This document shows positions 7,317 to 63,733 of a stretch of 64,000 nt of DNA, piece by piece. The stretch lies in the NCBI RefSeq assembly GCF_006345805.1, contig NC_043010.1:52886001-52950000 (forward strand), given 5' to 3'. The position numbers were made by a program, and so were the translations under genes. A model generated the notes under the pieces. The model did no database searches and had not been told where the DNA came from. It saw only the letters and a program-made list of their open reading frames with translations. Every line of letters starts with the position of its first letter. The stretch's first letter is position 1. The DNA comes from Octopus sinensis. Lineage: Eukaryota.

Positions 7317-7604
7317 TAAAAAGAGAGAAAATAGACAGCTTCTGATAATGCAGAAAGTTTAATGAAACTTTTATATTTCAGGCACAAAGGCCGATCTTCA
7401 GAAGAAAGAACAGTCTGAGAAAAGTCCAGTTATGATGGATCCTACATAACCAGACTTTTCCCAGACTGTTCTTTTCTTCTGAAGATGGGCCTTTGTGCCT
7501 GAATATAAAAGTTTCATTAAACTTACTGCATTATCAAAAGCTGTCTATTTTCTCACTTTTACAATCTTTGATATTACAATGCTTCAAGCAAACTACAACA
7601 CTCT
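7317..7604 (+). mobile_element. Fold-back PLE-derived element with hammerhead motif (family P1)
   Basis: ~120-bp inverted arms centred near 7439; CTGAAGA-T-GGGC..GCCT-GAA(A)TATA near 7479-7507; unique tail abuts (TA)n. Confidence 0.7.
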
Positions 7605-8129: not shown

Positions 8130-8450
8130 ACTGGCTCTTTGTCAGTTATGACAACGAGGGTTCCAGTTGATCCAATCAATGGAACAACCTGCTCATGAAA
8201 TTAACATACTGAGCACTCCACAGACACGTGTACTCGTAATGTAGTTCTCAGGGAGATTCAGCATGACACAGAGTGTGACAAGGCTGGCCCTTCGAAATAC
8301 AGATACTACTCATTTTTGCCAGCTGAGTGGACTGGAGTGACATAAAATAAAGTGTCTTGCTCAAAAAAAACAACACATTGATGGGATTTGAACTCATGAC
8401 CTTATGAACATAAGCCAAATACTCTAACCACTAAGCTACGTGACTTCACT
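8130..8450 (-). mobile_element. SINE-C-related copy (tRNA head, degenerate)
   Basis: Reverse match to the 41753 body and tail; B-box rc TTTGAACTC. Confidence 0.7.
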
Positions 8451-14482: not shown

Positions 14483-14863
14483 TATTTCATTTTTGGATTT
14501 GGTTTGCAAGATTCTTTATGTGAATTCGTGTGTTGAAGCATATTCTGTTGTGTCTGGAGAGAATCATTTCCTTTTTGTGCCTTATAATGTAACACACTCA
14601 CTGGTAAAATTTCCACTTATTTGTTATTTTTATTTTCCTAAAATTTTTGTTGCATCTTGCAATGGCCTTGACTATTGAAAAAGTTGCAAGATGCAACAAA
14701 AATTTTAGGAAAATAAAAAAAACAAATAAGTGGAAATTTTACCGGTGAGTGTGTTACATCATAGGGCACAAAAAGAAAATGACTTTCCCCAGACACAACA
14801 GAATATGCTTCAACACACGAATTCACATAAAGAATCTTGCAAACCAAATCCCAAAATGAAATA
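14483..14863 (+). mobile_element. Fold-back element with U3-A8 hammerhead variant (family P2)
   Basis: ~180-bp inverted arms; CTA-TTGAAAA-A-GTTGC-AAGAT-GCAAC-(G>A)AA-AATT-T-TAG at 14672-14708. Confidence 0.7.
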
Positions 14864-34331: not shown

Positions 34332-34554
34332 TAATACTAAGTAATTAAGGGTTTAGCAACGATTTGCCTCACCACACACCGAATTTAGAAATAGCAGTCA
34401 AAGAGTTATGGCTATTCTTTCTACTTAAAAGGGAGATCTCAGTAAAACTACAGCACTTTAAGTAGAAAGAATAGCCATAACTCTTTGACTGCTATTTCTA
34501 AATTCGGTGTGTGGTGAGGCAAATCGTTGCTAAACCCTTAATTACTTAGTATTA
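34332..34554. repeat. Perfect ~97-bp inverted repeat with ~27-nt spacer
   Basis: Arms TAATACTAAG..TACTTAAA / TTTAAGTA..CTTAGTATTA. Confidence 0.9.
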
Positions 34555-35929: not shown

Positions 35930-36247
35930 AGAGTATTGTAGTTTGCTTGAAGCATTGTGTATTGTTTGTAAAGAATAACAAGTTTTGAATGGTGCAACAA
36001 TGCACTATAACACAAACAATGGGCTATGTACCTGTTGTAATTTAGTCATCCATAATCTGATAATATTTCGGAATAAAATTCCTTCTTTAGATATTTTTAG
36101 ATGGAGTCACTGCATCTAAGAATATCTGAAGAAGGAATTTTATTCCGAAATATTATCAGATTATGGATGACTAAATTACAACAGCTAAATAGCCCATTGT
36201 TTGTGTTATAGTGCATTGTTGTACCATTCAAAACCTTATATTCTTTT
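35930..36247 (-). mobile_element. Fold-back element with canonical hammerhead core (family P4)
   Basis: ~130-bp arms; CTGAAGA-A-GGAAT-TTT-ATTCC-GAA-ATAT-T at 36126-36154; flanked by TA-rich repeats. Confidence 0.72.
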
Positions 36248-36433: not shown

Positions 36434-38404
36434 TATCCAATATACTGCTGGTATAATACCCAATTATTAATACACAAGTGTTTTTAATTGCATTGCAATT
36501 AACTTACCTAGTGTATTAAATGGGTGATGGTAAAGAGATATTTTACCATTAGTTTATGGAGCAATAAGAAAATGGAGGGGATCAATAGGTGGTATTTATC
36601 AACTTTTAGACATTATATTATGTCAACTTATTTATTTATTTACTAAAATGACAATCACAAGAATATACATACATGCATAACATATTATGCTTTACATATA
36701 AAATATATTAATATATAAAGATACCAGTAATTATTAAAATATAACATACAGGAATAGAAATTGGGAAAATATCTTACAGCTGTTTCAGCCAAGAGGCAAA
36801 ATTACCTCATTCTACCTTTATTCCTCCAGTAGACTGAAGTAATAAGTAGATGAAATCGAGGTACTTGGGTGTTTCTCTAGGCTTAAAAGGACTAAAAGCT
36901 TGAAGTGAAAATGTTCACAAGCCATATTGTACACAGATAAGCATATAAAGCCTATTGCATAACATGGTTTGCACATTCCTGTAGCAACTAACATGACAAA
37001 CAAAGGTGCATGCAGCAAGAAGTATTTCCTAATACTTCTGAGATAGTTTTCGTTTGCAGCAGGAAGTGCAACATATGCTGCTTGACTTCCACAATGATAA
37101 CAATGAAATATAATGTAAAATAACAGAGCAGCTGCAAAGTAAGCTAGAGAGACATCGAATCTGGACGTGTTTGAAGTGTGTGTTGTGATACATAGGAGCA
37201 GTTGTGACTGTTTGAGTAAAAAGCTTTGCTTCCTAACCATGTGGTCTTGGTTTCAATTCCACTGTGCGGAACTTTGGCTAAGTATTTTCTAATAATAGTA
37301 CAAGGCTGACCAAAGGGTTGGGAATGAATTTGGTAGCTGGAAACTGAAAGAAGCCCGTTGTATATATTCTTTTATTCTTTCATTTGTTTCAGTCATTTGA
37401 CTGTGGCCATGCTGGAGATGTTTCGACCAGAGCAGGCAAGCTGGGGAGCTGCACCAGACTCCAGTCTGTTTTGGCATGGTTTCCATGGCTGGATACCCTT
37501 CCTAATGCCAACCCCTTTACAACATGTGTTGGGTGCTTTTACGGGGCACGACGAGAGTGATTTTACATGGTGCCACACAGGTGCTTTTAGGTGGCACTCC
37601 CACAAGTGCTTTACACCACTAGGGGTATCAGTCTTGACACTTCAGATGTGGAGTATGGGTCTTCTTGAGTAAAGCCAAGTGCCAGGCATCTCAGCCCTTT
37701 GCCATCTTGCCTGAAAGGCTCGGCATCCTTCAAATTATTCTGTCAAATTTAATCCTTATATTTTCACTTCACCTGAGTACTGAAGTGAATAAAATAAGCA
37801 TTAAATTTGATGGAATAATCTCAATGCTAAGGGGTTAAAACTACAAAGCCCAAACAGGAAGAAAAGCCCAACAGTGTTAAGGGCCAGTTTACATGACCAC
37901 TTGAGGGTCTTCTGCTCTTCCTCATGACCCTCATGCATGAAGAAATTGCTATCATAACCAGTTGAAATGTGATTTAGTTTCACAACCGGGCTAGGTCTAT
38001 TATTACCTGTTGCAATGCGACTGCAATTCCATATCTGGACTTAACTTATTCTTTTCTACTTTAGGCACAAGGCCCAAAATTTGGGGGGAGAAGGCCAGTC
38101 GATTAGATCAGCCCAGTAGGCAACTGGTACTTAATTTATCAACCCTGAAAAGCAAAGTCAACCTTGGCAGAATTTGAACTCAGAATATAAGGACAGATGA
38201 AATACCGCTAACCATTTCACCCAGCATGCTAACGTTTCTGCCAGCTTTATTGCCCACAAGGGGCTAAACATAGAGGGGACAAACAAGGACAGACAAAGGG
38301 GTTAAGTCAATTACATTGACCCCAGTACGTAACTGGTACTTAATTTATCAACCCCAAAAGGATGAAAGGCAAATTCGACCTATTATTATTATTATTATTA
38401 TTAC

Positions 38405-47909: not shown

Positions 47910-48231
47910 TTACAGAGATGTACTTGCATAGCAAGTGACTTGATCTGAGATCGTGTGCTGGAACGAAAACAGTTGCAGCGTTGAAGGTGTTTATAAGCCA
48001 TTTAAGAAACACACAAAAACCGTTAGATTCACTTCAACATTTAAATTTAATTTGTCAAAATATTTTCGTCGCTTTGAGACCGCGACCTGTTAGCACGATA
48101 TTTTTGTCAGTGAACAGGTCGCGGTCTCAAAGCGACGAAAATATTTTGGCAAATTAAATTTAAATGTTGAAGTGAATGTAACGGTTTTTGTGTGTTTCTT
48201 AAATGGCTTACAAACACCTTCCACGCTGCAA
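47910..48231. mobile_element. Fold-back element with G3-C8 hammerhead variant (family P5)
   Basis: ~118-bp arms at 47973-48231, (TA)n on both sides; partial copy at 62815-62952. Confidence 0.75.
48103..48153 (+). ncRNA. Minimal type I hammerhead ribozyme motif (G3-C8 swap)
   Basis: TTTGTCA-GTGAACA-G-GTCGC-GGTCTCAAA-GCGAC-GAA-AATATT-T-TGGCAAA. Confidence 0.65.
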
Positions 48232-48587
48232 TATATATATACACACACATATATATATGTATGTATGTGTGTATATGTGTATGCATGTATGTGTGTGTGT
48301 GTGCGTGTCTGTGCTTGTGATTGTCCTCCACCACTGCTTGACAACGAATGTTGGTTTGTTTACATCCCTGTCACCTAGTGGTTTGACAAAGGAAATAGAT
48401 AGAATAAGTACAATGCTTACAAAAATAAAACTGGATTTGATTCATTAAACTACAATTCTTCAAGGCATTGCCCCAGCATGGCCACAGACCAATGGCTGGA
48501 AAAAGCAGAAGAATAAAAGAATACATTCTCTGCTTTGGTCTTATGTTCAAGGCATGAGAAAGCTTGAGTTTACATGAGAAGGCCTAG

Positions 48588-52624: not shown

Positions 52625-53230
52625 CTCATTTATTTGTTTCAGTCATTTGACTGTGGCCATGCTGGAGCACCGCCTTTAGTCGAGCAAATCGATCCCAGGA
52701 CTTATTCTTTGTAAGCCTAGTACTTATTCTATTGGTCTCTTTTGCCGAACCGCTAAGTTACGGTGACGTAAACACACCAGCATCGGTTGTCAAGCGATGG
52801 TGGGGAGGGACAAACACAACACATATATATACATATATATGACGGACTTCTTTCAGTTTCCATCTACCAAATCCACTCACAAGGCTTTGGTCGGCCCGAG
52901 GTTATAGCAGGAGACACTTGCCCAAGGTGCCATGCAGTGGGACTGAACCCGGAACCATGTGGTTCGTAAGCAAGCTACTTACCACACAGCCACTCAGCAC
53001 TTCTTTTTCGAAGTCCTATAAATCCTTTTGTTTCATAAAAAGAGACAAAAATTATTTCTTGCATATATATATGAGTGGCTGTGTGGTAAGTAGCTTGCTA
53101 ACCAACCACATGGTTCCGGGTTCAGTCCCACTGCGTGGCATCTTGGGCAAGTGTCTTCTGCTATAGCCCCGGGCCGACCAATGCCTTGTGAGTGGATTTG
53201 GTAGACGGAAACTGAAAGAAGACTGTCGTA

Positions 53231-55140: not shown

Positions 55141-55701
55141 TATGTGTGTGTATTATACATATGTAACGGTTAGTTCTTTGGAAGGCTACACATATTTATT
55201 TATACGCACACATACGGTCGGCCAGTGGTTGTGTCTATGTAAATGTCTCTTTGTGTGAGAGAGTGTGTTAAGTGTTGGCGCAATGTGGTTTGCCGTTCTT
55301 GTTTAAACCCAGGTCAGCCGTGATCAAATAGACCTATGATAAAAAAAGTTTGCCAGCTGCGACCATACACAACCTTCTCTCTTTTTTTTTTTTTTTTGTC
55401 TATATACAAGGGACAGTAACCTGTAATTTAAAAGAGATTTAGCAGCAATTTATACCAAGCCAAACAATCACATAGTTATATGTCCACGTCTAAAAGCGAA
55501 TATCCATGTGTCTTAAATTTTAGCTTTCATCTATGTCGTTCTTTCGCCTCGGACCAGCTCTGAGCGAACAGATCTGTGACCGAAAGCTTTTCAGCATCAG
55601 CCATCCTGTCTCTGTTTGGCTGTATTGAGGACTACAGTGTCTATTATTTATTTATATATTTATTTATCTTTAGAGGCAATTATGCAGATAACCAAATTAG
55701 A

Positions 55702-56090
55702 TATTTCGTTTTTGGATTTGGTTTGCAAGATTCTTTAAATGAGTTCGTGTGTTGAAGCATATTCTGTTGTGTCTGTGGAGAGTCATTTTCTTTTTGTGTC
55801 TTATAATGTAACACACTCACCGGTAAAATTTCCACTTATTTCTTACTTCTCCTAGGGCTAAACAGCGGTGGTGTAACCCCCTACTGTCACGTTCACGTTA
55901 GATTGACAGTATACAACCATTCTATCGCCCCACCACCGTACATATCTCTATGAGAGATTCAGAAATTTAATATTTCTGATTCTTACTTTTTATTTTCCTA
56001 AAATTTTCGTTGCGTCTTGCAACCTTTTCAATAGCCTTGAGTGTGTTACATTATAAGACACAAAAAGAAAATTACTCTCCCCAGACACAA
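55702..56090 (-). mobile_element. Family P2 element with a ~130-bp insertion
   Basis: Matches the 14483 arm; partial inverted arm at 56038-56090. Confidence 0.75.
55998..56034 (-). ncRNA. Minimal type I hammerhead ribozyme motif (U3-A8)
   Basis: Minus strand CTA-TTGAAAA-G-GTTGC-AAGAC-GCAAC-GAA-AATT-T-TAG. Confidence 0.6.
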
Positions 56091-56449
56091 ATTAGATACA
56101 TTAAATATAACGGTTTGGGGATGAAATACAAAATATGTATATATGTATTCATGCAAAATGAAAGAACACAAAAGCTGGGGACTTTCAGACGATAAATATT
56201 TAAGTATAAATACAAATTTATATTAAAAGATGCGACTAACACAGGGTACAAACGACAGAGAAAATTAAAGGGGTGGAATACAGGTGTTATAAGTCCAACA
56301 GCTGTTTCTCGAGGTTCGGGGATCCAAGACAATAGTAAACGATTATTTTTTTTATATTTATAATTTTTTAAATTTTTGACATACATACACAAGCGTGTCT
56401 CCTCCATACGACTTTGTTTCCTCATAACTTTCAGAAAATTGGATATTTT

Positions 56450-56808
56450 TTACTCTTTTACTTGTTTCAGTCATTTGACTGCGGCCATACTGGAGTACCA
56501 CCTTTAGTCGAGCAAATCGACACCAGGACTTATTCTTTGTAAGCCCAGTACTTATTCTATCGGTCACTTTTGTCGAACCGCTACGTTACACAGCAGCATC
56601 GGTTGTCAAGCGGTGTTGGGGGGGGGCATATACAGACACACACACATATATATACATACGCATACATATATACGACGGGCTTCTTTCAGTTTCCGTCTAC
56701 CAAAACCACTGACAAGGGTTTGGTCGGCCCGAGGTTATAGTAGAAGACACTTGCCCAATATGCCACGCAGTGGGACTGAACCCGGAACCACACAGCCACT
56801 CCTGCGCC
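56450..56808 (-). mobile_element. SINE-A
   Basis: Reverse match to 35498 with small deletions. Confidence 0.85.
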
Positions 56809-57512
56809 TATTTTTTCATGAAATGTTTTTACAAATAAGTTTCATCAAAGTTTAATGTTGAAAAATTATTGGTGGGTGTGCACACATACACACTAATACA
56901 CAATTTTTTTCAAAATTTCATGATACGCATCGTATATATATCTCCAAAATTGGAGATATATATGTGATGTGTACTAGTATGTATGTATATGTGCGCGCCC
57001 ACCAATTTTAATATTTTTTTTACATCGAATTCCGATGTAATTGTACTCTACATCATCTGAAAGTTATTTATAGAAAATTTCATTAAAAACTGTCCATTTT
57101 CCTGAAAGTTATGAAGAAACAAAAGAAAGGAGTTAATGGTCACCAAACAATGGTTACGATGCGTCCAGTTTGTATAGATAATAGAGTGTATGGCGTTAGA
57201 TTATTACTTGGACTTTGGTCAGCCTTGATAGAACAGATCTCTACAATCAAAAATATTCCAGTGGTGTTTAATGATTCCAAGAAGAAAAAAGGAAAAGCCG
57301 AAAATTCATACACTCACATGTACGCAAATTTGCAATACTGTTGAATATGGTAATCGACTTATGCTCATTAAGCTTAACTATGGAAAGATACAAAAGACAT
57401 AATCGAGAATGTAAATAGTTTTATTATCAAACGTAACGGACTTACTGGCGTGTAAGACACGCACCCTTATTTTACAAATAAATTTTGTGGAAAAACAAAT
57501 TAAGTATATTTC

Positions 57513-58314: not shown

Positions 58315-58436
58315 GTTTACAAATGGCCATATTACGTTGAATGCATGGATTCTTGTCCGATCACCGAAGTTAAGTAACGCTGAGCCTAGTGAGTACTTAG
58401 ATGGGCGACTGCTTGGGAAACCTAGGTGCTGTAAGC
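58315..58436 (+). pseudogene. 5S rRNA pseudogene
   Basis: GGCCATATTACGTTGAA..GTCCGATCACCGAAGTTAAG..AGTACTTAGATGGGCGACTGCTTGGGAA..GTGCTGTAAGC; short insertion near the 5' end and substitutions; T5 run ~10 nt downstream; solitary. Confidence 0.85.
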
Positions 58437-58451
58437 GTCACACATTTTTAT

Positions 58452-59264: not shown

Positions 59265-59825
59265 AGGTTTGGCAAGACTCCCTTTTGTACCCGACCAAAA
59301 ACACCCCTTTTTTATTTATTTAATTGTTATATCTACACAAACTCACATTTTCGGCTACAGAGAATATGAATCTGCAAAAAAATTGGCAAAAATCGGCATT
59401 TTGAAATTACCCCACCCCTCACTAAATTCTTCATTTTTAACCTTTTTTTAGAAAATTTTTGTTTTCAAAATACACAGAAAAATATGGAGATTATGATTCT
59501 GAAAAAAATTTCCCAAAGCTTTTCTATTTAGGGTTAGGGTTAGGGTCAGCATTTTAGGGTTAGGGTTTTAGGGTCACGGTTAAGGTTTGGGTTAGAGTTT
59601 TAGGGTTAGAGTTGGGGTTTTAGGTTTAGGGTTATGGCAAAAAGTTAAAAAAATGAAGAAGTTGGGGTGTAAAGGGGTGGGGCAGAAATATCGAAATTTC
59701 AATTTTTGGCAATTTTCTGGAATCTCCTTATCCGAAAATGTGGGTTTTTGGCCAAAAAAATTTTGTTAAAAAACCAATAATTTGCAAGAAAAGCAGGAAA
59801 GACGGGAGGAGGTCTTTCCGTAGGT
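59265..59825. mobile_element. Degenerate fold-back/MITE with internal TTAGGG-like repeats
   Basis: Imperfect inverted blocks (CACATTTTCGG / CCGAAAATGTG; AATTGGCAAAAAT / ATTTTTGGCAATT; CCCACCCC / GGGGTGGG; TTCTTCATTTTT / AAAAATGAAGAA) around TTAGGG variants at 59528-59635. Confidence 0.6.
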
Positions 59826-62805: not shown

Positions 62806-62950
62806 TATATATATGAGATGTACTTGCATAGCAAGAGACTTGATAGGAGATCGTGTGCTGAAACAAAAACAATTGCAGCATGGGAGGTGTTTATAAGCTG
62901 TTTAAAAACACACAAAAACTGTTAGATTAAATATTTTCTTCATTTTGAAA

Positions 62951-63103: not shown

Positions 63104-63371
63104 ATATTGATAAAAACAGTAAGACAACAAAAGAAAGAAAGAGACCTCGATATTATGTAAATAGAGGAAATTTATCTGTAAATGTAATATCTGACAATTA
63201 TTCGGTAGCCATGATAAAACTCCGAGTTTCGGATGCTGAGGTGGAAATCCACGCCGCCATCTCTTCGTGTATCCGGATAACTGAAGAGATGGCGGCGTGG
63301 ATTTCCGCCTTGGCATCCAAAACTCGGAGTTTTATCATGGCTACCGAATAATTGTTACATGTTACATTTAC

Positions 63372-63376
<5 letters not shown>
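63104..63376. mobile_element. Fold-back element with canonical hammerhead (family P6)
   Basis: Arms 63173-63376; (TA)n on both sides. Confidence 0.75.
63276..63336 (+). ncRNA. Type I hammerhead ribozyme motif
   Basis: GATAA-CTGAAGA-GATG..CATC-C-(G)AA-ACTCGGAGT-T-TTATC; G12 is lost by CpG decay in this arm but intact (GTTTCGG) in the left arm. Confidence 0.62.
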
Positions 63377-63529: not shown

Positions 63530-63733
63530 TATATATAGAGGGCATAATTATACATACATGCCAGGAGGCATTATATATACTGCCAAACGCTAAGAGGGAC
63601 AATCAGTCATTTCTACCAAAAATATTACTAATAGTAATATTTTTGGTAGAAATGACTGATTGTCCCTCTTAGCGTTTGGCAGGTATATATAATGCCTCCT
63701 GGCATGTATGTATAATTATGCCCTCTATATATA
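63530..63733. repeat. Near-perfect ~200-bp palindrome in TA-rich sequence
   Basis: TAGAGGGCATAATT..AATATTACTA-A-TAGTAATATT..AATTATGCCCTCTA, one indel. Confidence 0.92.

Follow-up and report, generated by a model that had tools for sequence, protein, structure and literature searches.

A minimal hammerhead motif with a U3-A8 pair in two copies of a likely PLE-derived repeat of Octopus sinensis

A 64,000-nt stretch of the Octopus sinensis genome (contig NC_043010.1, positions 52,886,001 to 52,950,000; hereafter the window) carries two copies, A and B, of a minimal type I hammerhead motif in which positions 3 and 8 are U and A. We place both motifs in a likely relic of a Penelope-like retrotransposon (Penelope-like element, PLE) that comprises a pLTR plus a tail, and the intact copy A would cleave only weakly, as a dimer or aided by a protein. 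This reading as a whole is given a probability of about 0.8. The coordinates of all features are collected in Table 1.

Table 1. Features of the window that relate to the hammerhead motifs and the elements carrying them (window coordinates; parts of the copy A motif in minus-strand order)
Feature	Position	Strand	Description
Copy A motif	55998..56034	minus	intact PLE-type minimal type I hammerhead motif, U3-A8
Copy A helix I, 5' strand	56034-56032	minus	CTA
Copy A core	56031-56025	minus	TTGAAAA; U3 U4 G5 A6 A7 A8 A9
Copy A extra base after A9	56024	minus	G
Copy A stem II	56023-56009	minus	GTTGC/GCAAC, 5 bp, loop AAGAC
Copy A G12 A13 A14	56008-56006	minus	GAA
Copy A helix III positions	56005-56002	minus	palindromic AATT, A15.1 to U16.1
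Copy A U17	56001	minus	
Copy A helix I, 3' strand	56000-55998	minus	TAG
Copy B motif	14672..14708	plus	copy A motif with G12>A at 14698
Copy B extra base	14682	plus	A
Copy A direct repeat, 5' copy	56088..56098	minus	11 bp, target-site duplication likely
Copy A inverted 5' piece	56038..56090	plus	53 nt, 2 mismatches to body 55767-55819
141-nt segment	55846..55986	minus	in copy A, missing from both copy B arms
Copy A 3' body	55702..55845	minus	~92% identical to copy B arms
28-codon ATG frame	55703..55786	minus	reaches element end, starts 84 nt before 3' end
Copy A direct repeat, 3' copy	55693..55703	minus	11 bp
Copy B inverted arm	14483..14662	minus	180 nt, 95% complementary to sense arm; starts inside stem II; carries G12A
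Copy B sense arm	14684..14863	plus	stem II to element 3' end, then TA-rich microsatellite
G3-C8 minimal hammerhead motif	48103..48153	plus	7-bp helix I, palindromic AAUAUU (6 nt), in palindrome 47973-48231
C3-G8 minimal hammerhead motif	36124..36156	plus	in palindrome 35970-36246
Decayed C3-G8 motif	7479	plus	palindrome 7319-7560; by eye, fails strict descriptor, weaker
Atypical C3-G8 candidate	63281	plus	palindrome ~63170-63376 (also delimited as 63197-63352); by eye, fails strict descriptor, weaker

The U3-A8 motif in copies A and B

The preliminary description of this DNA had read both sites as CTA-TTGAAAA-R-GTTGC-loop-GCAAC-GAA-AATT-T-TAG, and indeed both read so, apart from the G12 lost in copy B. 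The core set of minimal hammerheads (U4 G5 A6 N7 A9, G12 A13 A14, A15.1-U16.1 and H17) is complete in copy A, and the Watson-Crick 3-8 pair is U3/A8 in both copies (2 of 2). Minimal hammerheads of PLE pseudo-LTRs (pLTRs) are marked by an extra base after A9, a G10.1-C11.1 pair and a palindromic helix III (PMC4209133). Copy A has both the unpaired base between 9 and 10.1 and G10.1-C11.1 as the pair closing stem II, and the palindrome for dimer formation is present as AAUU. The short helix I that closes the junction comprises 3 bp in copy A, as stated before. This is ordinary for the PLE class, in which helix I is drawn with 2-3 bp in 29 of the 56 examples of Fig. S3 (our count in a text rendering; PMC4209133). 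Cleavage of copy A is predicted between 56001 and 56000.

The copy B motif differs from that of copy A at 3 of 37 positions: the extra base is changed from G to A at 14682, a loop C to T at a CpG (14692), and G12 to A, likewise at a CpG (14698), the last being the loss of G12 that had been reported. Minimal hammerheads require G12, which is missing in copy B, with G>A in both arms of its palindrome. Copy B is a decayed relative, and its ribozyme is predicted to be inactive. A longer helix I was also considered. Copy B could gain two U-A pairs past a tandem GA mismatch; since copy A cannot, no extension of helix I is claimed.

The chance occurrence of the motif was evaluated with a PLE-type descriptor without any constraint on positions 3 and 8, and block-wise dinucleotide shuffles of the window served as null. 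The descriptor matched the window three times, at 56031 (U/A), 48110 (G/C) and 36126 (C/G), and all three matches are Watson-Crick at 3-8. In 2546 shuffles the same descriptor gave 16 matches, four of them Watson-Crick, and never more than one Watson-Crick match per shuffle. A decay-tolerant descriptor, which adds 14675, matched four times in the window versus 18 times in 933 shuffles, and the family pattern of the U3-A8 copies matched twice versus not once in 100 shuffles. Partial look-alikes from looser scans are left out of these counts. These results bear out the hammerhead-type motif with a U3-A8 pair, and the hammerhead shape is real and not due to chance. The Rfam hammerhead models gave no match at E up to 10 to 55690-56110 (copy A) and 48085-48235. 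In the Rfam scan of the whole window, dominated by microsatellite matches to miRNA models, no hammerhead occurs among the 150 of 408 matches listed. Pattern searches were extended to prokaryotic genomes, where 10 matches were obtained with ~15 expected by chance and none combined palindrome and helix I by eye, and to a phage collection, where two 35-nt matches (E=0.01) were judged to be chance.

The novelty that had been implied for U3-A8 does not hold. The pair has been known in natural hammerheads since 2011, in a paper that cites prior in vitro activity of such variants (Perreault et al. 2011, PMC3088659), and in 2014 it was described in ~1,300 Schistosoma PLE motifs (PMC4209133). Perreault et al. 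present the same 3-8 covariation; the available passages of that paper contain neither a tie to PLEs nor the minimal dimer architecture. By our count, the 56 rows of Fig. S3 in PMC4209133 comprise 53 C3-G8, two U3-A8, one U3-G8 and no G3-C8 motifs.

U3-A8 as found here also occurs in the Cercyon PLE of Schistosoma mansoni (Sm3/Sm4; Cervera and de la Pena 2014, PMC4209133). The S. mansoni(4) row resembles copy A in the core UUGAAAA, the extra base before G10.1, the G10.1-C11.1 pair, the 3-bp helix I, U17 and the palindromic positions 15.2/16.2, whereas its stem II has 6 bp instead of 5 and another sequence, and its palindrome is ACGU instead of AAUU. A further likeness lies in the arrangement, as the Cercyon minimal hammerheads are mostly solo copies, with opposite-strand pairs 100-700 bp apart (PMC4209133). 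The present host is in contrast an octopod, and no RT ORF is linked to the motifs in the window. In the pLTR of Drosophila Penelope, stem II (GGUUGC..GCAACC) resembles GUUGC..GCAAC here (PMC4209133 Fig. S3), its helix III is likewise an A/U palindrome and its helix I has 2-3 bp (PMC4209133); the differences are its C3-G8 core and its 6-nt palindrome. No report of PLE hammerheads in octopus was found by title or abstract.

PLE minimal hammerheads assayed in vitro are inactive as monomers and cleave poorly as dimers (PMC4209133). For the isolated copy A motif, pair probabilities of 0.99-1.0 were computed for stem II and of about 0.7 for helix I. The AAUU self-duplex was computed at an unfavourable +2.2 kcal/mol, and helix III did not form in a cofold of two copy A motifs. 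When the whole of copy A was folded, stem II was present and helix I absent; in the folds of whole copy B and of the 36-kb and 48-kb elements the motif was buried in a hairpin. The computed folds agree with a low ribozyme activity, and a read-through transcript of copy B would be predicted to bury the motif in a long hairpin.

The repeat element carrying the motif

Beyond the features described before, the motif proved to be embedded in a longer repeat that has an inverted piece on its 5' side, and both arms of the copy B palindrome were found to carry G12A. Copies A and B belong to one repeat family and are ~92% identical over 180 nt and partly palindromic. In copy B, which forms the palindrome 14483-14863, the arms are separated by a 21-nt spacer containing the 5' half of the ribozyme. 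In copy A an 11-bp repeat is followed by the 53-nt inverted piece, the ribozyme, the extra segment of 141 nt and the body, and the second 11-bp repeat comes last. A shared stretch of at least 11 nt was found in 31 of 5000 random window pairs. Copy B has no flanking repeat of at least 6 nt, and no TA repeats are found at the 3' end of copy A.

PLE insertions have been described with 5'-truncated copies in inverted orientation, tails on one side and targets in TA repeats (PMC8557442). An inverted 5'-truncated copy lies beside the 5' end in both elements (53 nt in A, 180 nt in B), and PLE-like target signs are seen as the 11-bp repeat around A and the TA-rich repeat at the 3' end of B. A one-sided tail is found in the 7.5-, 36- and 48-kb elements and is not evident in copies A and B.

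The two arms of copy B have nine differences from A in common, with five and four private ones. Out of the five CpG sites of A, three (including G12) have decayed identically in both B arms, one in a single arm, and one is intact in both. The presence of G12A in both arms means that the change either was present in the template before the palindrome arose or was spread by conversion from arm to arm. Motif and body (13-14 differences in 180 positions) diverge between A and B at the same rate, so the copy pair gives no sign of selection, and we infer that the window copies are decaying neutrally. Because of this equal rate, the constancy of TTGAAAA and stem II, which had been proposed as a check and holds in 2 of 2 copies, is uninformative.

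Removal of the 141-nt segment brings copies A and B into colinearity in ten registers. Among these, the one with the fewest mismatches (1 to the left arm, 2 to the right arm) is the sole register with GT..AG ends. The segment further contains a branch-point-like CTAAC at 55901, while its acceptor has a poor pyrimidine tract and a better AG lies 6 nt upstream. It is flanked by a 9-nt direct repeat, so that an insertion together with a 1-nt loss in copy B can account for the segment as well. The segment folds better than its shuffles (z = -3.2); it occurs once in the window, and Rfam returned nothing meaningful for it. That it is an intron is possible, though we consider this doubtful. Helitrons start with TC and end with CTAG. 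A Helitron reading of the segment based on such ends was rejected, since excision there is not colinear with copy B. Drosophila Penelope occurs in spliced and unspliced forms (PMC2377424); the Penelope intron ends upstream of helix I, whereas the segment here starts 15 nt downstream of U17.

Among the 255 frames of at least 55 aa outside simple repeats in the window, none belongs to an RT or GIY-YIG family; Pfam gave nothing above cut-off and sub-threshold noise in six frames. Copies A and B are not classed as autonomous PLEs. As no RT-endonuclease gene was found in the window, their PLE origin is proposed from structure. The 28-codon frame has 62% identity over 26 aa to the N-terminus of the Octopus bimaculoides gene model A0A0L8I3J7. 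Altogether, four database proteins, one of them from O. bimaculoides, match the terminal 26-aa frame, and the matches stop at the element 3' end; four repetitive matches (5-19 stretches each) are left out of this count. The common stop argues for a definite end that diverged relatives have in common. No coding selection on the frame was detected among the window copies (synonymous to nonsynonymous changes 1:6, 1:5 and 0:4). Searches for a long PLE protein starting with the frame of the element found none (weak negatives), and the one long protein with this N-terminus is a likely chimeric gene model. A0A0L8I3J7 was rejected as a PLE protein since its alignment beyond about residue 27 is with SAP-domain ORFs lacking the motif; it is likely a chimeric gene model in which the end of a related repeat is fused to part of an ORF from a SAP-domain family. 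A search with an alternative frame of 44 aa gave no homologue, and the ESM Atlas search returned a single match (0.76) to an unnamed cluster.

The window in general is eukaryotic DNA rich in microsatellites, in which further repeats are dispersed. A SINE-like family adjoins copy A at 56443-56590 and occurs at at least ten further sites in the window; we take this abundant family to be of octopus type. A 5S rRNA-like copy at 58319-58437 (plus; Rfam, 72.7 bits) and a partial tRNA-like match at 8380-8439 (minus; Rfam, 39 bits) are each likely a pseudogene or part of a SINE. A degenerate interstitial TTAGGG array (66% matches) lies at 59528-59634.

Neighbouring motifs and the states of the 3-8 pair

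The preliminary description had also named C-G and G-C cores in neighbouring families, and these are found at 36126 (C3-G8) and 48110 (G3-C8), in elements laid out like those of the U3-A8 motifs. Three Watson-Crick states of the 3-8 pair are therefore present in the window. The families can be aligned in the core alone, so that three states on three strict matches are in agreement with the known rule and yield no covariation statistic. The proposed 3-8 covariation within the window thus stands as three pair states, and only across families that share the core; it is not phylogenetic covariation. In the literature searched no natural G3-C8 was found, the pair occurring there as an engineered variant only (PMC11167929, PMC3884650), which does not establish its absence from print.

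The G3-C8 motif at 48110 is the best-formed in the window. Part of the 3' end of the G3-C8 family, tail included, is located at about 62815-62928 on the minus strand. In the decayed motif at 7479, C11.1>T is common to both arms and each arm has one private lesion; the element has a ~45-nt tail on the right, followed by TA repeats. The candidate at 63281 combines a long interrupted stem II with a near-palindromic 9-nt helix III and a 5-bp helix I.

Eleven inverted-repeat structures are local to the window, of which six carry a motif and five do not. All three strict matches lie inside inverted-repeat structures, which make up 4.0% of the window (a post hoc figure in which the span of copy A is included for its motif). 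In the motif-bearing elements N3 sits 6-39 nt from the inverted arm or the centre, and a TA-rich microsatellite terminates 5 of the 6. One-sided tails of ~45-60 nt are found at 7.6, 35.9 and 47.9 kb, and in five elements the distance from N17 to the 3' end is 43-158 nt. A tail of 28/29 nt is common to 7576-7604 (plus) and ~35930-35958 (minus), beside TA repeats; the bodies of these elements cannot be aligned. The palindromes without a motif are located at 52841-53227, 34332-34554, 63538-63725, 37734-37819 and 56924-56973. The one at 63538-63725 is 98% perfect, TA-flanked and MITE-like.

Origin of the elements and possible significance

The role of the hammerhead in PLEs has been called still unclear (PMC8557442). 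Reverse transcription of the anole PLE is initiated internally, at 111-118 nt within the ORF that begins at stem II; cleavage requires the protein of the element, and the substrate of insertion is the uncleaved RNA (PMC11167929). A C3G/G8C exchange partly rescues cleavage there, and ribozyme mutants insert unaffected (PMC11167929). This element, Poseidon PAc of Anolis carolinensis, resembles the repeats described here in its pLTR ribozyme, an element end ~100 nt downstream and AT-rich targets. It differs in being autonomous, with an ORF from stem II and a C3-G8 core (PMC11167929), whereas the sole ATG frame here is the one close to the 3' end.

Under the PLE reading that we favour, an RT-endonuclease encoded elsewhere in the genome would prime at nicked AT-rich DNA. 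Copying would start ~160 nt (copy B) or ~300 nt (copy A, extra segment included) downstream of the cleavage site, and the RNA would be copied back to just upstream of the ribozyme. An inverted partial copy would be laid down as well, giving rise to palindromes. Helix III of the parent element would arise from AAUU pairing between two motifs, with U3-A8 in the place of C3-G8. The N17-to-3'-end distances of the five elements fit internal initiation as in the anole element (PMC11167929). Further support for PLEs is provided by the anatomy: minimal hammerheads of this class are described with the extra base, G10.1-C11.1, a palindromic helix III and U3-A8 (PMC4209133). The PLE-like insertion signs, the rarity of descriptor matches in shuffles, the position of the strict matches in inverted repeats, the TA-rich ends of 5 of 6 elements and the database proteins that stop at the 3' end also speak in favour. 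Speaking against it are the negative Pfam, Rfam and protein searches, the equal divergence of motif and flanks in two copies, the unfavourable AAUU duplex and dimer cofold, the absence of helix I from the fold of whole copy A, the lack of a flanking repeat at copy B and of TA repeats at the end of copy A, and the five palindromes without a motif. Taken together, we infer a PLE origin of the repeat.

Instead of a clipped autonomous PLE, the repeat might be a self-standing non-autonomous retroelement, SINE- or retrozyme-like, which carries a hammerhead and borrows its RT. The lack of an ORF beside any of the six motifs, the defined 3' end common to diverged relatives, and the 7.5-kb and 36-kb families with a common tail and no alignable body would suit such an element. 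Metazoan non-LTR retrozymes are likewise short, non-coding and repetitive and contain a type I hammerhead (PMC7229834; bioRxiv 10.64898/2026.07.22.740005), and in a preprint the origin of animal retrozymes is placed in PLE pLTRs (bioRxiv 10.64898/2026.07.22.740005). However, the type I motifs of retrozymes are canonical and arrayed in tandem (PMC7229834), and the window elements are dispersed inverted units with minimal motifs: no tandem array of the family is seen among the 150 of 167 TRF rows listed, and family searches returned dispersed copies only. Moreover, internal initiation as in the anole PLE accounts for short copies without a separate element (PMC11167929). We therefore regard a self-standing element as quite unlikely.

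Long near-perfect palindromes with TA-rich flanks and no ORF, together with the window palindromes that lack a motif (5 of 11), could also be expected of MITE or foldback DNA transposons whose inverted repeats hold a hammerhead look-alike by chance. Against this stand ~0.002 Watson-Crick matches expected by chance per window versus three observed, in unrelated families. The inverted piece of copy A matches the internal body and not the element end, so symmetric terminal inverted repeats of the MITE style are not common to all copies; copy A with its 53-nt piece and 11-bp repeat is asymmetric, arm lengths and centres vary among the elements, and tails are one-sided. This origin is very improbable. 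That copy A is a domesticated, active host ribozyme is scarcely credible: its core is intact and its motif lies outside the inverted piece, but no gene was found nearby, there is no partner motif in tandem, motif and flank have diverged equally from copy B, and PLE minimal hammerhead monomers are inactive in vitro (PMC4209133).

A more far-reaching version of the PLE reading, which we think rather unlikely in its entirety, would join several of these observations. The elements would form several families of short hairpin PLE derivatives in this octopod genome, in which the 3-8 pair has passed through three Watson-Crick states including a natural G3-C8; dead ribozymes would have been mobilised uncleaved, as G12A in both copy B arms would suggest; and A and B would be unspliced and spliced retrocopies of an element with a 141-nt intron close behind the cleavage site. 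If true, the window would serve as a natural experiment on the importance of hammerhead cleavage and intron retention to PLE transposition.

Given that U3-A8 and the minimal architecture were already published in 2011 and 2014, the finding matters little in itself and adds a likely cephalopod example to the known PLE hammerheads. The neighbouring G3-C8 motif at 48110, with its 7-bp helix I, is the better candidate for an assay. Whether cleavage is under selection could be probed with dense families of this kind, which vary in the 3-8 pair, in G12 and in the possession of a possible intron.
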